DNA from: a virus
Lineage: Duplodnaviria > Heunggongvirae > Uroviricota > Caudoviricetes
Strand: one strand, 5' to 3'
IMG/VR virus record: IMGVR_UViG_2802429225_000001
DNA length: 13,287 nucleotides
In this document: positions 3,441 to 13,096 of the stretch, piece by piece
Position numbering within the stretch: position 1 is the first letter of the stretch
Layout: every line of letters begins with the position of its first letter
Position numbers and translations under genes: made by a program
The notes under the pieces: generated by a model
Told to the model about the DNA's origin: nothing
Databases searched by the model: none
What the model saw: the letters and a program-made list of their open reading frames with translations, nothing else

Positions 3441-3479
3441 TCACCGGGCATAAAGCCCCCCATAAACGCCCCATCACGC

Positions 3480-3508
3480 AACGCACGGCTCCGGTCGTGC
3501 GTTTTCAT
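3480..3508 (+). terminator. Candidate intrinsic terminator after the 565-aa gene
   Basis: Stem ACGCACG (3481-3487) / CGTGCGT (3496-3502), 8-nt loop, followed by TTTTC; lies 40 nt after the stop at 3440. Confidence 0.4.
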
Positions 3509-3983
3509 ATCTGCCACCTGATTAATGCGTTCTGCGTGCCATTCCGGCGCTGTATGCGCACACCACGTAAACGGTGTGACGTAAAGCGTGAGGTGACGTA
3601 AACCGCGCTACCCCCTCCAACCCGCGGGTTTTGTGTCGAAACACTTTTTCAGTTTTCTGCCGTGCAAAAATGACCGCCAGCCCGCGCAGCAACTGAGGGA
3701 AAAGCGAAGATCTGAAATTTCACGTTTTGAAATTTTTTGCAGTTTTCAGAGAGGTTTTTACGATCGCACAAATGGCAGGGGCAATAAAACTGCATGATAT
3801 TAAAAGAGTTTTCATGCTTTACGTGGGACAAGACACGATCGCGAAAGGATCGCGTTAAACAACTCTCAAACAAAGAAGCCAGACGCAGCGCGGCCTGCGT
3901 AAAATCAAGAGCCAGAATTAAACTGAAAAAAGGATCAATACCACGCCTCGATCGCGCATGACGATCTATGCAGCAACATGACG

Positions 3984-4050
3984 AAAAAAAACCGGCGCGA
4001 ACGCCGGCGGAAGCATGTATCAAATGCGTGACTGAATAATGTCTGCGGTC
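3984..4050 (-). ncRNA. Candidate small RNA (about 67 nt) with its own promoter and intrinsic terminator, divergent from the hok-like promoter
   Basis: On the minus strand: -35 TTGAGG (4079-4084), 16-nt spacer, extended -10 TGaTATAAA (4057-4065), then about 67 nt ending in hairpin CCGGCG-UUCG-CGCCGG (3992-4007) followed by eight U (A-run 3984-3991 on plus strand). No convincing ORF or Shine-Dalgarno inside. Confidence 0.35.
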
Positions 4051-4088
4051 GGGAATTTTATATCAGAAGACTGACAGGCCTCAACGGA

Positions 4089-4118
4089 TTGAAACAAGGG
4101 AAAAAACCAGGCTAGAAT
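4089..4118 (+). promoter_or_regulatory. Candidate sigma70 promoter of the hok-like mRNA
   Basis: TTGAAA (4089-4094), 18-nt spacer, TAGAAT (4113-4118); predicted start near 4125, exactly where the 5' element complementary to the 3' end begins. Confidence 0.45.
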
Positions 4119-4168
4119 TCGCGCGGGTGCCTTTCGGCTGATGGCTGGAGGGAATACCTGAAGGCCGG

Positions 4169-4351
4169 ATGTGGAAAGGCCCCGGAAAACATTTTTGTTT
4201 AACCGAGGCCCTAACCGTCTACCTAGCAAGTGATAGGTTAGCGCCTCCCCGAAAAAGGAGCAAGCGCTATGTCGCAAAAATCGCTTACAGCCATCACGTT
4301 CTGTGTGACGGCAATCCTCATCATCTGGATGCTGCACGGCTCGCTGTGTGA
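4169..4351 (+). CDS. mok-like overlapping reading frame (60 aa) upstream of and overlapping the hok-like toxin gene
   Basis: ORF starts at ATG 4169 (GAAGG 4160-4164 upstream), is in a different frame from the toxin ORF and ends inside it, as mok does in hok/sok loci. Protein shows no recognisable domain, so the role is by position only. Confidence 0.3.
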   Translation: MWKGPGKHFCLTEALTVYLASDRLAPPRKRSKRYVAKIAYSHHVLCDGNPHHLDAARLAV

Positions 4352-4409
4352 AATACGGATGAGCTTCTGGGGAGCGGAGTTTGCGGCGTTCTTACAGTGT
4401 AAGCAGTAA
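4269..4409 (+). CDS. hok: Hok/Gef-family type I toxin (46 aa small membrane peptide)
   Basis: ATG 4269 preceded by AAGGAG (4255-4260, 8-nt spacer). Translation MSQKSLTAITFCVTAILIIWMLHGSLCEIRMSFWGAEFAAFLQCKQ has a hydrophobic N-terminal helix plus the SLCEIR ... E.AAF motif shared with Hok (R1) and HokA. Below the size cut-off of the supplied ORF track. Confidence 0.7.
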   Translation: MSQKSLTAITFCVTAILIIWMLHGSLCEIRMSFWGAEFAAFLQCKQ

Positions 4410-4495
4410 GGAAACCGCGACGGGGGAGTAATCCCCCGTCAATCGGTTGCTAAGGTTGGTCGAAACGGCACCCTATCTCACAGACATGAACAACA

Positions 4496-4530
4496 AACCC
4501 GCAGCGTAAAAACTGCGGGTTTTCTTTTTG
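4496..4530 (+). terminator. Intrinsic terminator of the hok-like transcript
   Basis: Stem AACCCGCAG (4496-4504) / CTGCGGGTT (4513-4521), loop CGTAAAAA, followed by TTTCTTTTTGTTG. Confidence 0.6.
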
Positions 4531-4579
4531 TTGCCCTCACAAATGAGGGTGACACTATTCGTAAGCAATAGGCATGACA

Positions 4580-4627
4580 GATCGATGCAATAAATCCGAT
4601 CGATAAAAACGATCGGTTTGTTATCAT
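4580..4627 (+). promoter_or_regulatory. Regulatory region of the com-methyltransferase operon: three clustered GATC sites plus candidate extended -10 promoter
   Basis: GATC at 4580-4583, 4598-4601 and 4611-4614 (two within ATCGAT); TGtTATCAT extended -10 at 4619-4627 with no good -35 (the -35 position coincides with a GATC). Resembles the layout upstream of Mu mom. Confidence 0.4.
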
Positions 4628-4661
4628 ATCGGCAGCAGTAACCACACAAGAGGTGCCGCAA

Positions 4662-4859
4662 ATGACGCAAAATGTACGATGCAAAAATTGCAACAAACTA
4701 CTTGCCCGCGCCTCATTTCACTACATTGAAATAAAATGTCCGCGCTGCAAAACACTTAACCAGATAACGAGAGCCATTGAGCACCCCACACGCATGAGGA
4801 GTTATGACCGTGGGGATCGCAACCCAGCATCAACCAGTACATACACCGGAACACACTAA
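4662..4859 (+). CDS. com: Com-like zinc-finger translational regulator (65 aa from ATG 4662; the ORF track starts 3 codons earlier at GTG 4653)
   Basis: AAGAGGTG Shine-Dalgarno (4648-4655) 6 nt before ATG 4662. Protein MTQNVRCKNCNKLLARASFHYIEIKCPRCK ... EHPT carries the CxxC ... CxxC motif and surrounding residues of phage Mu Com. Confidence 0.8.
   Translation: MTQNVRCKNCNKLLARASFHYIEIKCPRCKTLNQITRAIEHPTRMRSYDRGDRNPASTSTYTGTH
4784..4815 (+). promoter_or_regulatory. Stem-loop sequestering the methyltransferase ribosome-binding site and start codon (candidate Com-responsive translational operator)
   Basis: CCCCAC (4784-4789) pairs with GTGGGG (4810-4815); the 20-nt loop holds GAGGAG (4796-4801) and ATG 4804. 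Lies inside the 3' end of com. Confidence 0.4.
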
Positions 4860-5610
4860 GATTTACCAGATTGACAATGCCACGCTCTGTCGTGGAAATG
4901 CACTGGAAATATTGCCGCTGATTGAGCCAGAAAGCATTGATGCCTTAATCACTGACCCGCCTTACAGTTCGGGTGCGACACACAAGGCCGGACGCACCAA
5001 CCAGGGCAGTCATGCAAAATATCTGAACGGCGAGAACCTTCACCGCTTTGATGGGTTCGCGGGTGAGAACATGGACGCCCGTTCGTGGGCTTACTGGACA
5101 CAATTATGGATGGCACAGGCACTACGTGCAGTCAGGTCGGGCGGTTATGCCCTGGTATTTACTGACTGGCGACAACTGCCTGCTTTAACCGATGCGTTTC
5201 AGGCCAGCGGTTTTACATGGCGTGGAATCATTGCGTGGAACAAAGGAAAGGGGTCACGAACACCCCATACGGGGTATTTCCGGCATCAGTGCGAATACAT
5301 CGTCTGGGGCAGCAAAGGCCATTTAGGTAAATCGCCTTCGGGTCCGTTCGACGGCTGCATGACGTTCCCGGTTATCCCGTCAAAGAAAATGCACCCGACC
5401 GGAAAACCAGAAGAACTAATGGCAGAGCTGGTCAGAACTGCGAATAGTGGCGGAACAGTCCTTGATCCTTTTATGGGGTCAGGGACAACGGGTGTGGCTG
5501 CACTGAAAGCAGGGCGAAAATTTATTGGTATAGAAACCAGTGATCATTATTTTGAGGTAGCGGCGCAGCGGCTTCGGGGGACTATTACCACAACCATTTC
5601 GACTACATAA
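4804..5610 (+). CDS. DNA amino-methyltransferase, beta class (N6-adenine or N4-cytosine; N6_N4_Mtase type), 268 aa
   Basis: Motif IV DPPY (LITDPPYSS) precedes HPTGKP and motif I DPFMGSGTT, the beta-class order (IV before I). Start overlaps the com 3' end out of frame (ATG 4804; alternative GTG 4810). Confidence 0.85.
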   Translation: MTVGIATQHQPVHTPEHTKIYQIDNATLCRGNALEILPLIEPESIDALITDPPYSSGATHKAGRTNQGSHAKYLNGENLHRFDGFAGENMDARSWAYWTQLWMAQALRAVRSGGYALVFTDWRQLPALTDAFQASGFTWRGIIAWNKGKGSRTPHTGYFRHQCEYIVWGSKGHLGKSPSGPFDGCMTFPVIPSKKMHPTGKPEELMAELVRTANSGGTVLDPFMGSGTTGVAALKAGRKFIGIETSDHYFEVAAQRLRGTITTTISTT

Positions 5611-6349: not shown

Positions 6350-7775
6350 TAATGCCAGTCAGTTAAGCAACTGACTGGCTCTTTTTCGGGGCTGTGGGGG
6401 ATTTCCAGGGTCTCTCCTTTACCACTCTCGGGAAGGCCCTTTCCCTTCTTGTCGGTAATTTCACTAGTTGTCCCATACTTGCAAGATCGCGCATCAGCTC
6501 CGGTATACGTCCCGGTGAAGCGCCCTGCAATGTCATCAGCATTCTCATCACCATTCCGCATGATTCTGAGAAACTCAGTTGATTCGGCCAGTAACCTTTC
6601 AGATGTTCTGCCATTTTAATCATCTGATATCTCACCAGATTATAAGCCAGTAAGACACCCCATAGCTCTTGCTCCACAAGCTCCGGCTTTTTACTTCTCA
6701 GCGTCAGCCTGCTCAGTTGCATCGTCTGTTTTATCTCCCTGTATCCCAGTTCGATTTCCCAGCGATGACTGTACAGATCCGCCATTTCTCCTCCGGGGAA
6801 GCGCATGGCGTCCGTCATCGACGTCAGCAGATGGCAGACTTTTCCTTTGCGCGTCACGGTCAGCAGGCGGGCTGTCACCTCATTTCCCAGTCCCGGCCAC
6901 TTTTTTCGTGCCTGCGGGCTGGTTTTCAGCTTCACCAGATGATCGCCTTTACCCAGTTTTCTGATCTCTTCATATTGCGCTCCCTTTCTGAGAGGGATCA
7001 TCCAGTGGCGGTGTTCTCCCGCCTGGCTCCAGGCATTTAACAGTCCCAGTGAGTAATAACCTTTATCCATTAACGTCAGGGTGTTATCGCCGGTTTGTTC
7101 TATAAGTTGCTCAGCAAGCTCATTTTCGCTGTTCTTCATCGTGCCGAAAGCTGCAGCCGTCAGCAGATGGCTGGTCAGTTCCATCTGGCAGACCATTTTG
7201 ACCTGCGGGTAGAGCGCCGGGTTCCCGGCATGTGTCTGGCGGGGGAAGGCTGCATCGTTCTCTGGTGTATCCGGTGTGCGCCAGAACACACCATCGATGG
7301 CCAGCAGGGTCAGGCCGCACCAGTGCGGATGCGGCGTGGCGTTATGCCAGAGCTGCGCTGTTTTCGTGAACACGCGGCGGACAGCCTCACTTCCCAGGCG
7401 CTGGCGGGCCTGAATAACGGCACTGGGGGCAACGAAGGGGCGATTGCCCGGTAGCATGATGTCCAGGCGATTCACAATCTGGTGAAGAGGTTCTTTACGC
7501 TCAAGCGCCATGCCAACAATACACCAGACCATCATTTCGAGGGGAAGACGGCGCTTGCGTAGCGTTACAGTACCTGATTCGGCAAGGCAACGAGAGATGA
7601 GTTCGGGGTCGAGGTAATCCCCCAGAGAAGTCAGTGGGTTACGCAGAGAATCGTAACGGGATACCAAATCAAGTGCCTGTCCAATGAGCATAAAAAAATC
7701 CGGAAACGAGTGAGCGTTTCCGGATTCTTACACAGCCACTGGATCGGTCAACTGATCCTTAACTGATCGGCATTA
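6350..7775 (-). mobile_element. IS4 insertion sequence, complete copy (1426 bp) with 18-bp imperfect terminal inverted repeats
   Basis: Ends TAATGCCAGTCAGTTAAG (6350-6367) and, reverse-complemented, TAATGCCGATCAGTTAAG (7758-7775), 16/18 match. Length 1426 bp and a single 442-aa transposase ORF match IS4 as I know it; flanked by the 13-bp direct repeat. Confidence 0.9.
6363..7691 (-). CDS. insG: IS4 transposase (DDE family, InsG-type), 442 aa
   Basis: Full-length ORF inside the IS. Start ATG at 7689-7691 is immediately preceded on the minus strand by an 11-bp stem (7698-7708 / 7715-7725) and a U-run, a typical IS read-through barrier. Confidence 0.9.
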
Positions 7776-10393: not shown

Positions 10394-10455
10394 CCTAAAG
10401 AATCAAGACGATCCGGTACGCGTGATTTTCTTTTCACATTAATCTGGTCAATAAC

Positions 10456-10483
10456 CTTGAATAATTGAGGGATGACCTCATTT
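10456..10483 (+). promoter_or_regulatory. Candidate sigma32 (heat-shock) promoter of clpB
   Basis: CTTGAAT (10456-10462), 13-nt spacer, CCTCATTT (10476-10483), matching the sigma32 consensus CTTGAAA / CCCCATnT; about 40 nt upstream of the clpB start. Confidence 0.55.
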
Positions 10484-10522
10484 AATCTCCAGTAGCAACT
10501 TTGATCCGTTATGGGAGGAGTT

Positions 10523-13096
10523 ATGCGTCTGGATCGTCTTACTAACAAATTCCAGCTTGCTCTTGCCGATGCCCAATCACTTGCACTCGGGCACGACAAC
10601 CAATTCATCGAACCACTTCATTTAATGAGCGCCCTGCTGAATCAGGAAGGGGGTTCGGTTAGTCCTTTATTAACATCCGCTGGCATTAATGCTGGCCAAT
10701 TGCGCACAGATATCAATCAGGCATTAAATCGTTTACCGCAGGTTGAAGGTACAGGGGGCGATGTCCAGCCTTCACAGGATCTGGTGCGCGTTCTTAATCT
10801 TTGCGACAAGCTGGCGCAAAAACGTGGTGATAACTTTATCTCGTCAGAACTGTTTGTTCTGGCGGCACTTGAGTCTCGCGGCACGCTGGCCGACATCCTG
10901 AAAGCAGCAGGGGCGACCACCGCCAACATTACTCAAGCGATTGAACAAATGCGTGGAGGTGAAAGCGTGAATGATCAAGGAGCCGAAGACCAACGTCAGG
11001 CTTTGAAAAAATATACCATTGACCTTACCGAACGTGCCGAACAAGGTAAACTCGATCCGGTAATTGGTCGTGATGAAGAAATTCGTCGTACCATTCAGGT
11101 ACTGCAACGCCGTACTAAAAATAACCCGGTACTGATCGGTGAACCTGGTGTCGGTAAAACCGCCATCGTTGAAGGTTTGGCGCAGCGTATTATCAATGGC
11201 GAAGTACCTGAAGGGCTGAAAGGCCGCCGCGTACTGGCGCTGGATATGGGCGCGCTGGTGGCTGGGGCGAAATATCGTGGTGAGTTTGAAGAACGTCTGA
11301 AAGGCGTGCTGAACGATCTGTCGAAACAGGAAGGCAACGTCATTCTGTTTATCGATGAGCTGCACACCATGGTGGGCGCAGGTAAAGCCGATGGCGCAAT
11401 GGACGCCGGGAATATGCTGAAACCGGCACTGGCCCGTGGTGAACTGCACTGCGTGGGCGCGACCACCCTTGATGAATATCGCCAGTACATTGAAAAAGAT
11501 GCGGCGCTGGAACGTCGTTTCCAGAAAGTGTTTGTTGCCGAGCCAACGGTGGAAGACACCATTGCTATTCTGCGTGGCCTGAAAGAACGTTACGAGCTGC
11601 ACCACCATGTGCAAATTACTGACCCGGCAATTGTTGCAGCGGCGACGTTGTCTCATCGCTACATTGCTGACCGTCAGTTGCCAGATAAAGCCATCGACCT
11701 GATCGATGAAGCGGCATCCAGTATCCGTATGCAGATTGACTCAAAACCGGAAGAGCTTGACCGACTCGATCGTCGAATTATCCAGCTTAAGCTGGAACAA
11801 CAGGCGTTAATGAAAGAGTCTGATGAAGCCAGTAAAAAACGTCTGGATATGCTCAATGAAGAACTGAGTGACAAAGAACGCCAGTACTCTGAGTTAGAAG
11901 AGGAGTGGAAAGCAGAGAAAGCGTCACTCTCTGGCACCCAGACCATTAAAGCCGAACTGGAACAGGCGAAAATCGCCATTGAACAGGCGCGCCGTGTAGG
12001 TGATCTGGCGCGGATGTCCGAACTGCAATACGGCAAAATTCCGGAGCTCGAAAAACAACTGGAAGCGGCTACGCAGCTCGAAGGCAAAACCATGCGTCTG
12101 TTGCGTAATAAAGTGACTGACGCAGAAATTGCTGAAGTGTTGGCGCGTTGGACGGGCATTCCTGTTTCTCGCATGATGGAAAGTGAGCGCGAAAAACTGC
12201 TGCGTATGGAGCAAGAACTGCACCATCGTGTTATTGGCCAAAACGAAGCCGTTGATGCGGTATCTAACGCCATTCGTCGTAGCCGTGCGGGGCTTGCGGA
12301 TCCTAATCGCCCGATTGGTTCGTTCTTGTTCCTCGGTCCAACGGGTGTAGGTAAAACCGAACTCTGTAAGGCGCTGGCGAATTTTATGTTCGACAGTGAC
12401 GAGGCGATGGTTCGTATCGATATGTCCGAGTTTATGGAGAAACACTCGGTGTCTCGTCTGGTTGGTGCACCTCCGGGATATGTGGGTTATGAAGAAGGTG
12501 GCTACCTGACTGAAGCGGTGCGTCGTCGTCCTTATTCCGTCATTCTGCTGGATGAAGTGGAAAAAGCGCATCCGGATGTATTCAACATTCTGTTGCAGGT
12601 TCTGGATGACGGACGTCTGACTGATGGGCAGGGGAGAACGGTCGATTTCCGTAATACGGTGGTCATTATGACCTCTAACCTCGGCTCCGATCTGATCCAG
12701 GAACGTTTCGGTGAACTGGATTATGCGCGCATGAAAGAGCTGGTGCTCGGCGTGGTTAGCCATAACTTCCGTCCGGAATTCATAAACCGTATTGATGAAG
12801 TTGTGGTCTTCCACCCGTTGGGTGAACAACATATCGCTTCGATTGCCCAGATCCAGTTGAAACGTCTGTACAAACGTCTGGAAGAACGTGGTTATGAAAT
12901 CCACATTTCTGACGAGGCACTGAAACTGCTGAGCGAGAATGGTTACGATCCGGTTTATGGTGCACGTCCTCTGAAACGTGCTATCCAGCAACAGATCGAA
13001 AACCCGCTGGCGCAGCAAATACTGTCTGGTGAATTGGTTCCTGGCAAAGTCATTCGCCTGGAAGTTAATGAAGACCGCATTGTCGCCGTCCAGTAA
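10523..13096 (+). CDS. clpB: Chaperone/disaggregase ClpB (Hsp100 AAA+ ATPase), 857 aa
   Basis: Two AAA+ modules (Walker A GEPGVGKT and GPTGVGKT) and the middle coiled-coil. I place the start at ATG 10523, which gives the 857-aa length I know for ClpB, with GGGAGGAG 10513-10520 as Shine-Dalgarno, rather than the track's ATG 10511. Internal GTG (Val149) at 10967-10969 matches the known ClpB-80 alternative start. Confidence 0.97.

Follow-up and report, generated by a model that had tools for sequence, protein, structure and literature searches.

In the hok/sok (parB) system of R1, the full-length mRNA is folded with its tac element on fbi and with ucb on the mok Shine–Dalgarno (SD) sequence; in the truncated mRNA tac is paired with ucb and the mok SD lies on dcb, the truncated form being protected by the last 3' stem-loop (PMC9841398, from which the R1 numbering is also taken). 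In R1, loss of the Sok promoter is reported to be lethal or to select for suppressor mutations in hok. A second related pair, hokW-sokW from Sakai prophage 5, is carried by a lambdoid Stx2 phage, encodes a toxin (HokW) of 51 residues and is reported to aid phage release after SOS induction (PMC8621323). At the level of the family, the Hok catalogue of Escalera-Maurer et al. (bioRxiv 10.1101/2025.08.07.668861) indicates that prophages are enriched in hok and that more than 80% of Hok peptides keep M1, C16, T18, L30, C31, E32 and E41 (logo numbering). Toxicity was observed for 42 of the 45 homologs assayed there, and the three non-toxic ones are named. This catalogue deals with the coding sequence only, and its authors state that mok, Sok and mRNA structure were left unanalysed.

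The locus that we describe lies in a stretch of 13,287 nucleotides (hereafter the window), and its features are collected in Table 1. It is a real, intact and ordinary hok/sok cassette, of a kind already annotated and catalogued and with a peptide that has been tested for toxicity. We put the probability that it is a prophage-borne hok/sok toxin–antitoxin cassette, an accessory gene at the right end of the prophage, at roughly 90%. The initial annotation had read the locus as a Hok/Gef toxin gene with an mRNA of about 400 nt, pairing between the 5' and 3' ends, a stem-loop and a terminator, and this core is borne out by profile matches and by covariation. It had also presented the locus as one missed by the ORF track. 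The gene is indeed present as a Hok, but the cassette is not new, since RefSeq annotates its relatives and an identical peptide has been catalogued.

Table 1. Features of the hok/sok cassette, with positions numbered along the window
Feature	Position	Strand	Remarks
hok promoter	4089–4118	+	-35 TTGAAA 4089–4094, 18-nt spacer, -10 TAGAAT 4113–4118; consensus scan
Predicted full-length hok mRNA, ~406 nt	4125–4530	+	Rfam start, terminator, fold
tac, 5'-end element	4125–4138	+	Partner fbi (closed form) or 4174–4183 (open form)
60-aa frame proposed as mok	4169–4351	+	Open in the window, not conserved across copies
Predicted Sok RNA, ~56 nt	4173–4228	-	Tail 4228–4213, terminator hairpin 4212–4176, UUUCC; predicted ends, approximate
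ucb-like box (GGAAAGGCCCCG)	4173–4184	+	With GAGG box when closed, with tac when open
CGAGGCC box	4204–4210	+	Aligns to R1 mok SD GAGG; no start codon after it
Sok-target hairpin, open form	4205–4247	+	Loop CUAGCAA 4223–4229; minimum-energy fold
Predicted Sok promoter	4235–4263	-	-35 TTGCTC 4263–4258, 17-nt spacer, -10 TAACCT 4240–4235
Anti-SD GCCUCC	4243–4248	+	With hok SD when closed, with GAGGC when open
hok SD AGGAG	4256–4260	+	8 nt 5' of hok ATG; read off the sequence
hok CDS, 46 aa (MSQKSLTAITFCVTAILIIWMLHGSLCEIRMSFWGAEFAAFLQCKQ)	4269–4409	+	ATG start; ORF list and profile matches
Long-range helix, 5' arm	4271–4284	+	Covers start-codon G and next four codons; pairs with 4374–4387
Long-range helix, 3' arm	4374–4387	+	Within codons for AEFAA
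GC-rich stem-loop, GNRA loop	4419–4440	+	Just past hok stop; 10 pairs, GUAA loop
fbi, fold-back element	4459–4473	+	Partner tac
Intrinsic terminator	4495–4530	+	Stem 4495–4522, then U-run; sets predicted mRNA 3' end

The 46-residue frame and its SD were found as first proposed. Its peptide matches Pfam HOK_GEF (PF01848) at 29.9 bits, above the gathering threshold of 22, with residues 7–44 aligned to profile positions 5–42 of 42, and it matches PHROG 251, the 'MokW-like host killing' family, with an E value of 1e-22. This is the profile search that had been suggested as a check on the Hok/Gef assignment. Among NCBIfam models HokA comes closest (E 2e-8), but the HokA equivalog model (NF007290) scores 34 bits, far under its cut-off of 89, which rules out HokA itself while leaving the peptide a Hok. 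The two share a C-terminal motif, ...E(L/F)AAFL.CK. According to the alignment rows of the catalogue authors, M1, C12, T14, L26, C27, E28 and E37 of the peptide are the Hok-conserved residues; within the 46-residue subfamily M1, C27, E28 and E37 are invariant, L26 is nearly so, and C12 and T14 vary. These profile matches identify 4269–4409 as the coding sequence of a Hok/Gef-family type I toxin. It resembles R1 Hok in being a Hok/Gef membrane-toxin peptide, but has 46 residues rather than 52 and only a distant similarity to it.

Residue for residue, the peptide is identical to entry 72_1621 of the 60%-identity cluster 72 (bioRxiv 10.1101/2025.08.07.668861), although the window copy differs from the cloned one at synonymous sites. 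The entry is listed with the clusters of high abundance, and its clone pAZ3::72_1621 (LRP137) was made for an arabinose toxicity assay (Escalera-Maurer et al., bioRxiv 10.1101/2025.08.07.668861). Because it is not among the three constructs of 45 named as non-toxic, we infer by elimination that the peptide is toxic on expression, and that the killing assay proposed in the initial annotation has in effect been carried out and gave the outcome foreseen there.

The cassette is widespread. Matches to 4080–4540 were obtained in 1757 of the 5426 complete E. coli genomes (about a third), where the cassette is mostly 80–95% identical to the window copy; 971 of 1767 records fall at 90–95% identity and 457 at only 60–80%. 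It is also carried by 34 plasmids and encoded on at least 310 IMG/VR viral contigs. A protein search gave 67 related sequences, the sources being E. coli, Shigella, Salmonella and Klebsiella, and RefSeq labels the ORF 'Hok/Gef family protein' in relatives. The diversity of the locus was gathered by exact-protein look-ups and not by a scan of genome contigs, which returned only six loci, some of them with the implausible labels Planococcaceae, Vagococcus and Xanthomonas that are probably the result of contamination.

The window is Escherichia-like chromosome, and its best E. coli matches reach about 93.5% identity across 88–89% of its length, with clpB, rluD and bamD all lying within it, a divergence that probably places it outside E. 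coli sensu stricto. On its prophage the cassette occupies the right end, with tail/baseplate genes on one side and a com-methyltransferase module on the other. Upstream of it are a DUF4376 tail-fibre gene, an HP1 ORF34-like gene and a baseplate gene of 565 residues, and downstream a Mu-type com gene that overlaps an N6/N4 DNA methyltransferase gene, followed by raiA. In its relatives the cassette is found after the ogr gene that ends P2-like prophages, after lambdoid tail-fibre genes and near relaxase genes on plasmid-like contigs, and Salmonella relatives carry tandem pairs. Between these contexts the homology starts at the -10 box and stops just past fbi or past the terminator, boundaries which mark the cassette as a small mobile module. 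The chromosomal hok loci of E. coli K-12 (HokA and others) differ in this respect, each occupying a fixed chromosomal site whereas the type in the window rides on mobile elements. The cassette has more in common with hokW-sokW, being likewise a prophage-borne pair with a predicted antisense RNA from its own promoter, and its peptide falls in the 'MokW-like host killing' family of PHROGs; it differs in toxin length and in the type of phage.

A consensus scan recovered the sigma-70 promoter of the initial annotation, with 10 of 12 consensus matches, in a stretch of 800 nt that held three promoter-like sites against 0.7 expected. The -10 box and the sequence downstream of it are kept in all contexts and the -35 region varies between prophage contexts. 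The start of the predicted mRNA is suggested by Rfam model RF01794, which aligns over its full length to 4125–4282, beginning exactly at the predicted +1. This alignment scores 43 bits (E 3e-8) in a permissive local search of 800 nt, below the gathering score of 59, and at the gathering threshold Rfam gave no match at the locus. The R1-type control locus L107 scores 87 bits on the same model, which there also starts 6–7 nt after a -10-like box. We note that RF01794, although named 'sok', matches the plus (hok mRNA) strand here and so in practice describes the 5' portion of that mRNA. As in R1, the predicted mRNA is about 400 nt long with a long 5' untranslated region, of 144 nt compared with about 170 nt in L107, and after the stop codon a GC-rich stem-loop, fbi and the terminator follow in that order. 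The proposed terminator was seen as a stem followed by a T-run, and the hairpin noted after the stop codon is present. Compensatory changes in this stem-loop (GC to CG or the reverse at 4422/4437; GC to AU or the reverse at 4419/4440 and 4426/4433) accompany it across relatives, and by analogy with R1 it is predicted to be the 3' protective hairpin of the truncated mRNA. The minimum-energy fold of 4125–4530 includes the end-pairing and has a z score of -7.9 relative to shuffles.

A long-range helix between 4271–4284 and 4374–4387 is formed with a probability of about 1 at all of the unbound full-length and truncated lengths tested, and of 0.75 with the Sok site blocked. Among 41 distinct sequences the segment 4374–4396 does not vary at a single nucleotide (100% identity), and seven third codon positions in succession fall within it, whereas the coding sequence as a whole averages 86.5%; because of this invariance we consider the helix to be probably real.

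The conservation of the RNA elements was assessed in an alignment of 45 distinct full-length copies, 64–97% identical to the window, with RNAalifold run on 41 copies and on a non-redundant set of 22. The initial annotation had pointed to complementarity between the 5' end of the transcript and its 3' region, and RNAduplex places 4125–4140 on 4457–4473 with 15 pairs, one bulge and an energy of -26.0 kcal/mol, which was equalled by none of 2000 dinucleotide shuffles of the 3' untranslated region and by none of 320 other 85-nt tiles of the window. RNAalifold predicts tac/fbi in both sets. Seven GGGUGCC/GGCACCC pairs are invariant or changed only to G-U, and the next three show double-sided changes (UA to CG, CG to GC and GC to AU) in 10 of the 22 sequences. 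The closed structure also contains the helix 4178–4184/4204–4210, in which pair 4178/4210 changes from GC to AU in 4 of 22 sequences, and a hairpin of CUCC 4245–4248 with the hok SD GGAG 4257–4260. Over the whole structure 97.5% of cells pair, compared with 30–48% when the partner is slid by 1–3 columns, and all 41 relatives are predicted to adopt the closed state. The aligned copies thus show the closed-form pairing to be conserved. The compensatory changes mainly split two lineages, the E. coli type and the Salmonella type, and so represent few independent events.

When the 3' end is removed, the minimum-energy fold rearranges: tac moves to 4174–4183, and GAGGC 4205–4209 pairs with GCCUC 4243–4247 to give the Sok-target hairpin, the probability of which is 0.75–0.99 after truncation. 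The outer helix of this hairpin is 97.5% paired in the 22 sequences; no other stretch of the cassette varies as much as the inner part of the hairpin, where pairwise identity is 0.71. For the open form as a whole 97.4% of cells pair, compared with 34–60% when slid, so that across the 22 sequences this pairing too is shown to be conserved. Alignment columns 10–11 of tac covary both with their local ucb partners and with fbi, which is the coupled pattern to be expected of a two-state RNA. The tac/fbi end-pairing, the tac/ucb alternative and the presence of the GAGG box in the same Rfam columns are all points of likeness to R1.

To follow the SD itself we used the probabilities of mutually exclusive pairs in place of its probability of being unpaired, which is no useful readout here, since two very small helices are enough to make it count as paired. 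With the 3' end at 4473 or beyond, the probabilities are 1.0 for tac/fbi, 0 for tac/ucb, 0.94 for anti-SD/SD and 0 for the target hairpin; with the 3' end at 4466 or before, tac/ucb rises to at least 0.96, anti-SD/SD falls to 0.01–0.23 and the target hairpin reaches its post-truncation range. If 4176–4231 is blocked in the truncated RNA as a mimic of bound Sok, tac/ucb returns to 0, anti-SD/SD to 0.94 and the target hairpin to 0. Since the anti-SD/SD probability switches with both truncation and blocking of the Sok site, the modelling suggests that Sok could act on the SD of hok itself, silencing it indirectly and with no part played by mok, besides acting by the RNase III route of R1. Under equilibrium folding the switch is strong in the group to which the window belongs, and weak or absent in several relatives (L001, L003, L050, L096, L100a and L101). 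The hok start codon and first codons are paired to 4374–4387 in every unbound state modelled.

The antitoxin does not appear in the initial annotation. We predict a cis-encoded Sok-like antisense RNA on the minus strand at 4228–4173. The hexamers of its promoter are weak, with 3 of 6 matches each, and lie below the reach of the consensus scan; they and their spacing are kept in all relatives (variants TTTACT and TATCCT). The predicted antisense promoter is at the place homologous to that of R1, its -10 element (TAACCT here, TATCCT in the R1 type) occupying the same Rfam model columns as the R1-type AGGAUA, the complement of TATCCT. The predicted RNA folds at -26.6 kcal/mol (z = -4.5) with a single-stranded 5' tail of about 16 nt, and the hairpin is retained in relatives with different inner stems. 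Identity in the tail/target stretch, 4211–4233, is 0.71, compared with 0.82–0.87 for most segments, 0.73 for the linker and 0.76 for fbi. Tandem copies differ from each other in this same stretch, and its variability fits selection for copy-specific recognition.

The most consistent account of these elements would be as follows. The sigma-70 promoter would yield the hok mRNA of about 406 nt, in which tac on fbi leaves 4178–4184 free for the CGAGGCC box and the anti-SD at 4245–4248 then holds the hok SD at 4257–4260, so that the closed full-length RNA would neither be translated nor bind Sok. Slow 3' trimming back to the stem-loop would remove fbi, whereupon tac would pair locally with 4174–4183 and release GAGGC; the freed GAGGC would form the Sok-target hairpin with 4243–4247 and the hok SD would be liberated. 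As long as the element is present, Sok (about 4228 to 4173) would bind this target, putting the anti-SD back on the SD, and, as in R1, would probably trigger cleavage by RNase III. Once the supply of Sok ends, Hok would be made and the inner membrane damaged. We infer the ends of Sok, the 3' processing, the direct SD switch and the biological role, which may be prophage stabilization, phage exclusion or help with lysis.

It is also conceivable that the locus works as a canonical hok/mok/sok system, with 4169–4351 as a functional mok whose translation opens the hok start and is blocked by Sok. The overlapping 60-residue frame that the initial annotation placed at the position of mok does exist; it is open in the window, its ATG is preceded by GAAGG, and its frame offset to hok is the same as that of R1 mok. 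Moreover, the hok start codon is paired in all unbound folds, and in R1 it is translation of mok that resolves such a state. However, the frame is open only in the window copy. In the closest relatives, among them three from the same prophage context (L009, L054 and L081), it is closed by an indel of 2 nt within the Sok-target loop; the shifted frame reaches a stop 43–46 nt ahead of hok, with no start codon after the stop. Other E. coli copies use still other frames, and the Salmonella and Klebsiella copies lack the ATG. The loop that the frame must cross contains indels whose length is not a multiple of three; furthermore, the ATG lies upstream of the Sok-complementary region and not inside it, at a spacing from its SD of only 4 nt. 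Across the 45 distinct copies none of the reading frames gives a conserved mok with a start codon, and these copies therefore show the cassette to be without a conserved mok.

The same test was applied to R1-type loci (L107, L108 and L110–L113, with L109 left out), which are 81–97% identical to each other. Here a genuine mok is conserved: five of the six have a mok of 70–71 residues, which in L108, L110, L112 and L113 begins some 58 nt upstream of hok and in L111 lies within a longer ORF. The remaining locus, L107, has its mok ATG in the frame of hok. The CGAGGCC box of the cassette shares Rfam model columns with the R1-type 'CGAGGCA-UCCCAUAUG'; the GAGG is kept in the cassette, but CGU or other non-start triplets replace the mok AUG of R1. 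Two further candidates were considered. An in-frame N-terminal extension of hok, like mokC, is blocked in 45 of 45 copies (in the window by TAG 4239–4241, with no start after it), and mini-ORFs beginning at GTG 4231 and ATG 4140 are not conserved. Because it is not conserved, the frame 4169–4351 is probably not a functional part of the locus, and we regard a canonical mok-dependent system as unlikely.

A cassette of this kind without a conserved mok differs from R1, in that the GAGG box and its partner would, as modelled, govern the anti-SD of hok's own strong SD and not a mok SD. Tentatively, hok/sok of the 46-residue subfamily (cluster 72) may lack mok by nature, with the ancestral mok SD serving only as an RNA pairing element and Sok controlling the hok ribosome-binding site through three mutually exclusive hairpins; these could be ucb/GAGG, GAGGC/GCCUC and anti-SD/SD. 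No description of mok-less hok loci was found in the papers searched. We do note that R1 uses mok translation to overcome a start-codon block such as that with 4374–4387, and that a mok-less locus would need another opener.

It might also be argued that the cassette is an inactive relic, either transcriptionally silent or with a toxin that is never translated from its native mRNA. In E. coli K-12 several of the chromosomal hok loci are inactivated, toxicity is known only from constructs that place the coding sequence behind an artificial promoter and SD, and a start codon that is paired in every unbound modelled state would suit such a reading. This is nevertheless quite improbable given that the ORF is intact and identical to the assayed peptide, that the promoter retains 10 of 12 consensus positions, that none of the RNA elements is disrupted and compensatory changes preserve them, and that seven synonymous sites in a row do not vary among 41 sequences; the cassette is neither interrupted by an insertion nor truncated, and it occurs on many different mobile elements. 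The notion of a chance small hydrophobic ORF beside chance hairpins, without toxin–antitoxin function, has only the small size of the ORF in its favour and is effectively dismissed by the profile matches, the 67 homologous proteins, the shuffle controls and the covariation.

The locus is thus one more copy of a widespread and annotated prophage and plasmid cargo gene with an assayed toxin, and the annotation of the window should carry hok CDS, hok mRNA and Sok RNA features. The possible specialist interest lies in an abundant subfamily that is apparently mok-less, with a direct anti-SD switch. If that reading is true, the subfamily would amount to a natural experiment on the reach of the R1 paradigm, in which Sok acts via mok, and would offer a simpler RNA switch for the study of fold-back control of toxin translation.

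Homology among copies of the hok cassette in different prophage and plasmid contexts (related loci L003-L106 in other genomes and contigs) starts within the promoter of hok, either at its -10 box or a little upstream (window 4101-4118), and the -35 element of the promoter therefore comes from each context itself. L001, a relative from E. coli, has an inserted TM2-domain gene that separates hok from com. The window carries an IS4-family transposase inserted between raiA and bamD, which is absent in L001.

Upstream of hok, the 650-nt stretch 3441-4088 is 90-96% conserved within the same prophage family, holds no convincing ORF and includes three direct repeats, (G)TGACGTAAA, around 3565-3605. 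At its hok-proximal end (window 3984-4084), the promoter-like site and terminator found on the minus strand would give rise to a transcript of about 65 nt that runs divergently to hok. Within this part, 3988-4045 is near-invariant in six related prophages, and Rfam gave no match. Elsewhere in the window RyfD sRNA was detected (Rfam RF02768, 125 bits); its position upstream of clpB is as expected for enterobacteria.

Features of the window discussed in this part
Feature	Position	Strand
Promoter-like TTGAGG-18-TAAAAT	4084-4055	minus
Strong terminator (plus eight T)	4008-3991	minus
GATC sites	4580, 4598, 4611	
Region of promoter-like TCGATA-16-TATCAT	4580-4627	
com (Mu-type) and N6/N4 DNA methyltransferase genes	4653-5610	
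IS4-family transposase (Nterm_IS4 + DDE_Tnp_1)	6363-7691	minus
RyfD	10404-10542	

Two Salmonella contigs each contain two tandem cassettes about 490 nt apart (L099, 3001-3631; L100, 3001-3635), the copies of which differ mostly in the region targeted by the Sok tail, and in L106 an Ibs type I toxin gene lies 240 nt downstream of hok. In the R1-type control locus on IncFII (L107, 294-509), owing to a 1-nt difference, mok and hok share one reading frame from the mok ATG, and this Mok-Hok fusion frame is 72 aa long; the RefSeq annotation of this locus has a truncated Hok from 408 only. Near-identical cassettes are also found in L002, L003 and L006, whose contigs bear the organism labels Planococcaceae, Vagococcus and Xanthomonas pisi, and these most likely reflect enterobacterial contamination in the assemblies so labelled.

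Downstream of hok, three GATC sites lie within and just upstream of a promoter-like sequence that precedes a Mu-type com gene, and com has a 56-nt overlap with the gene for an N6/N4 DNA methyltransferase. The com-mom module of phage Mu is controlled by Dam and OxyR. The module in the window resembles that of Mu, but it has an N6/N4 DNA methyltransferase where Mu has Mom.
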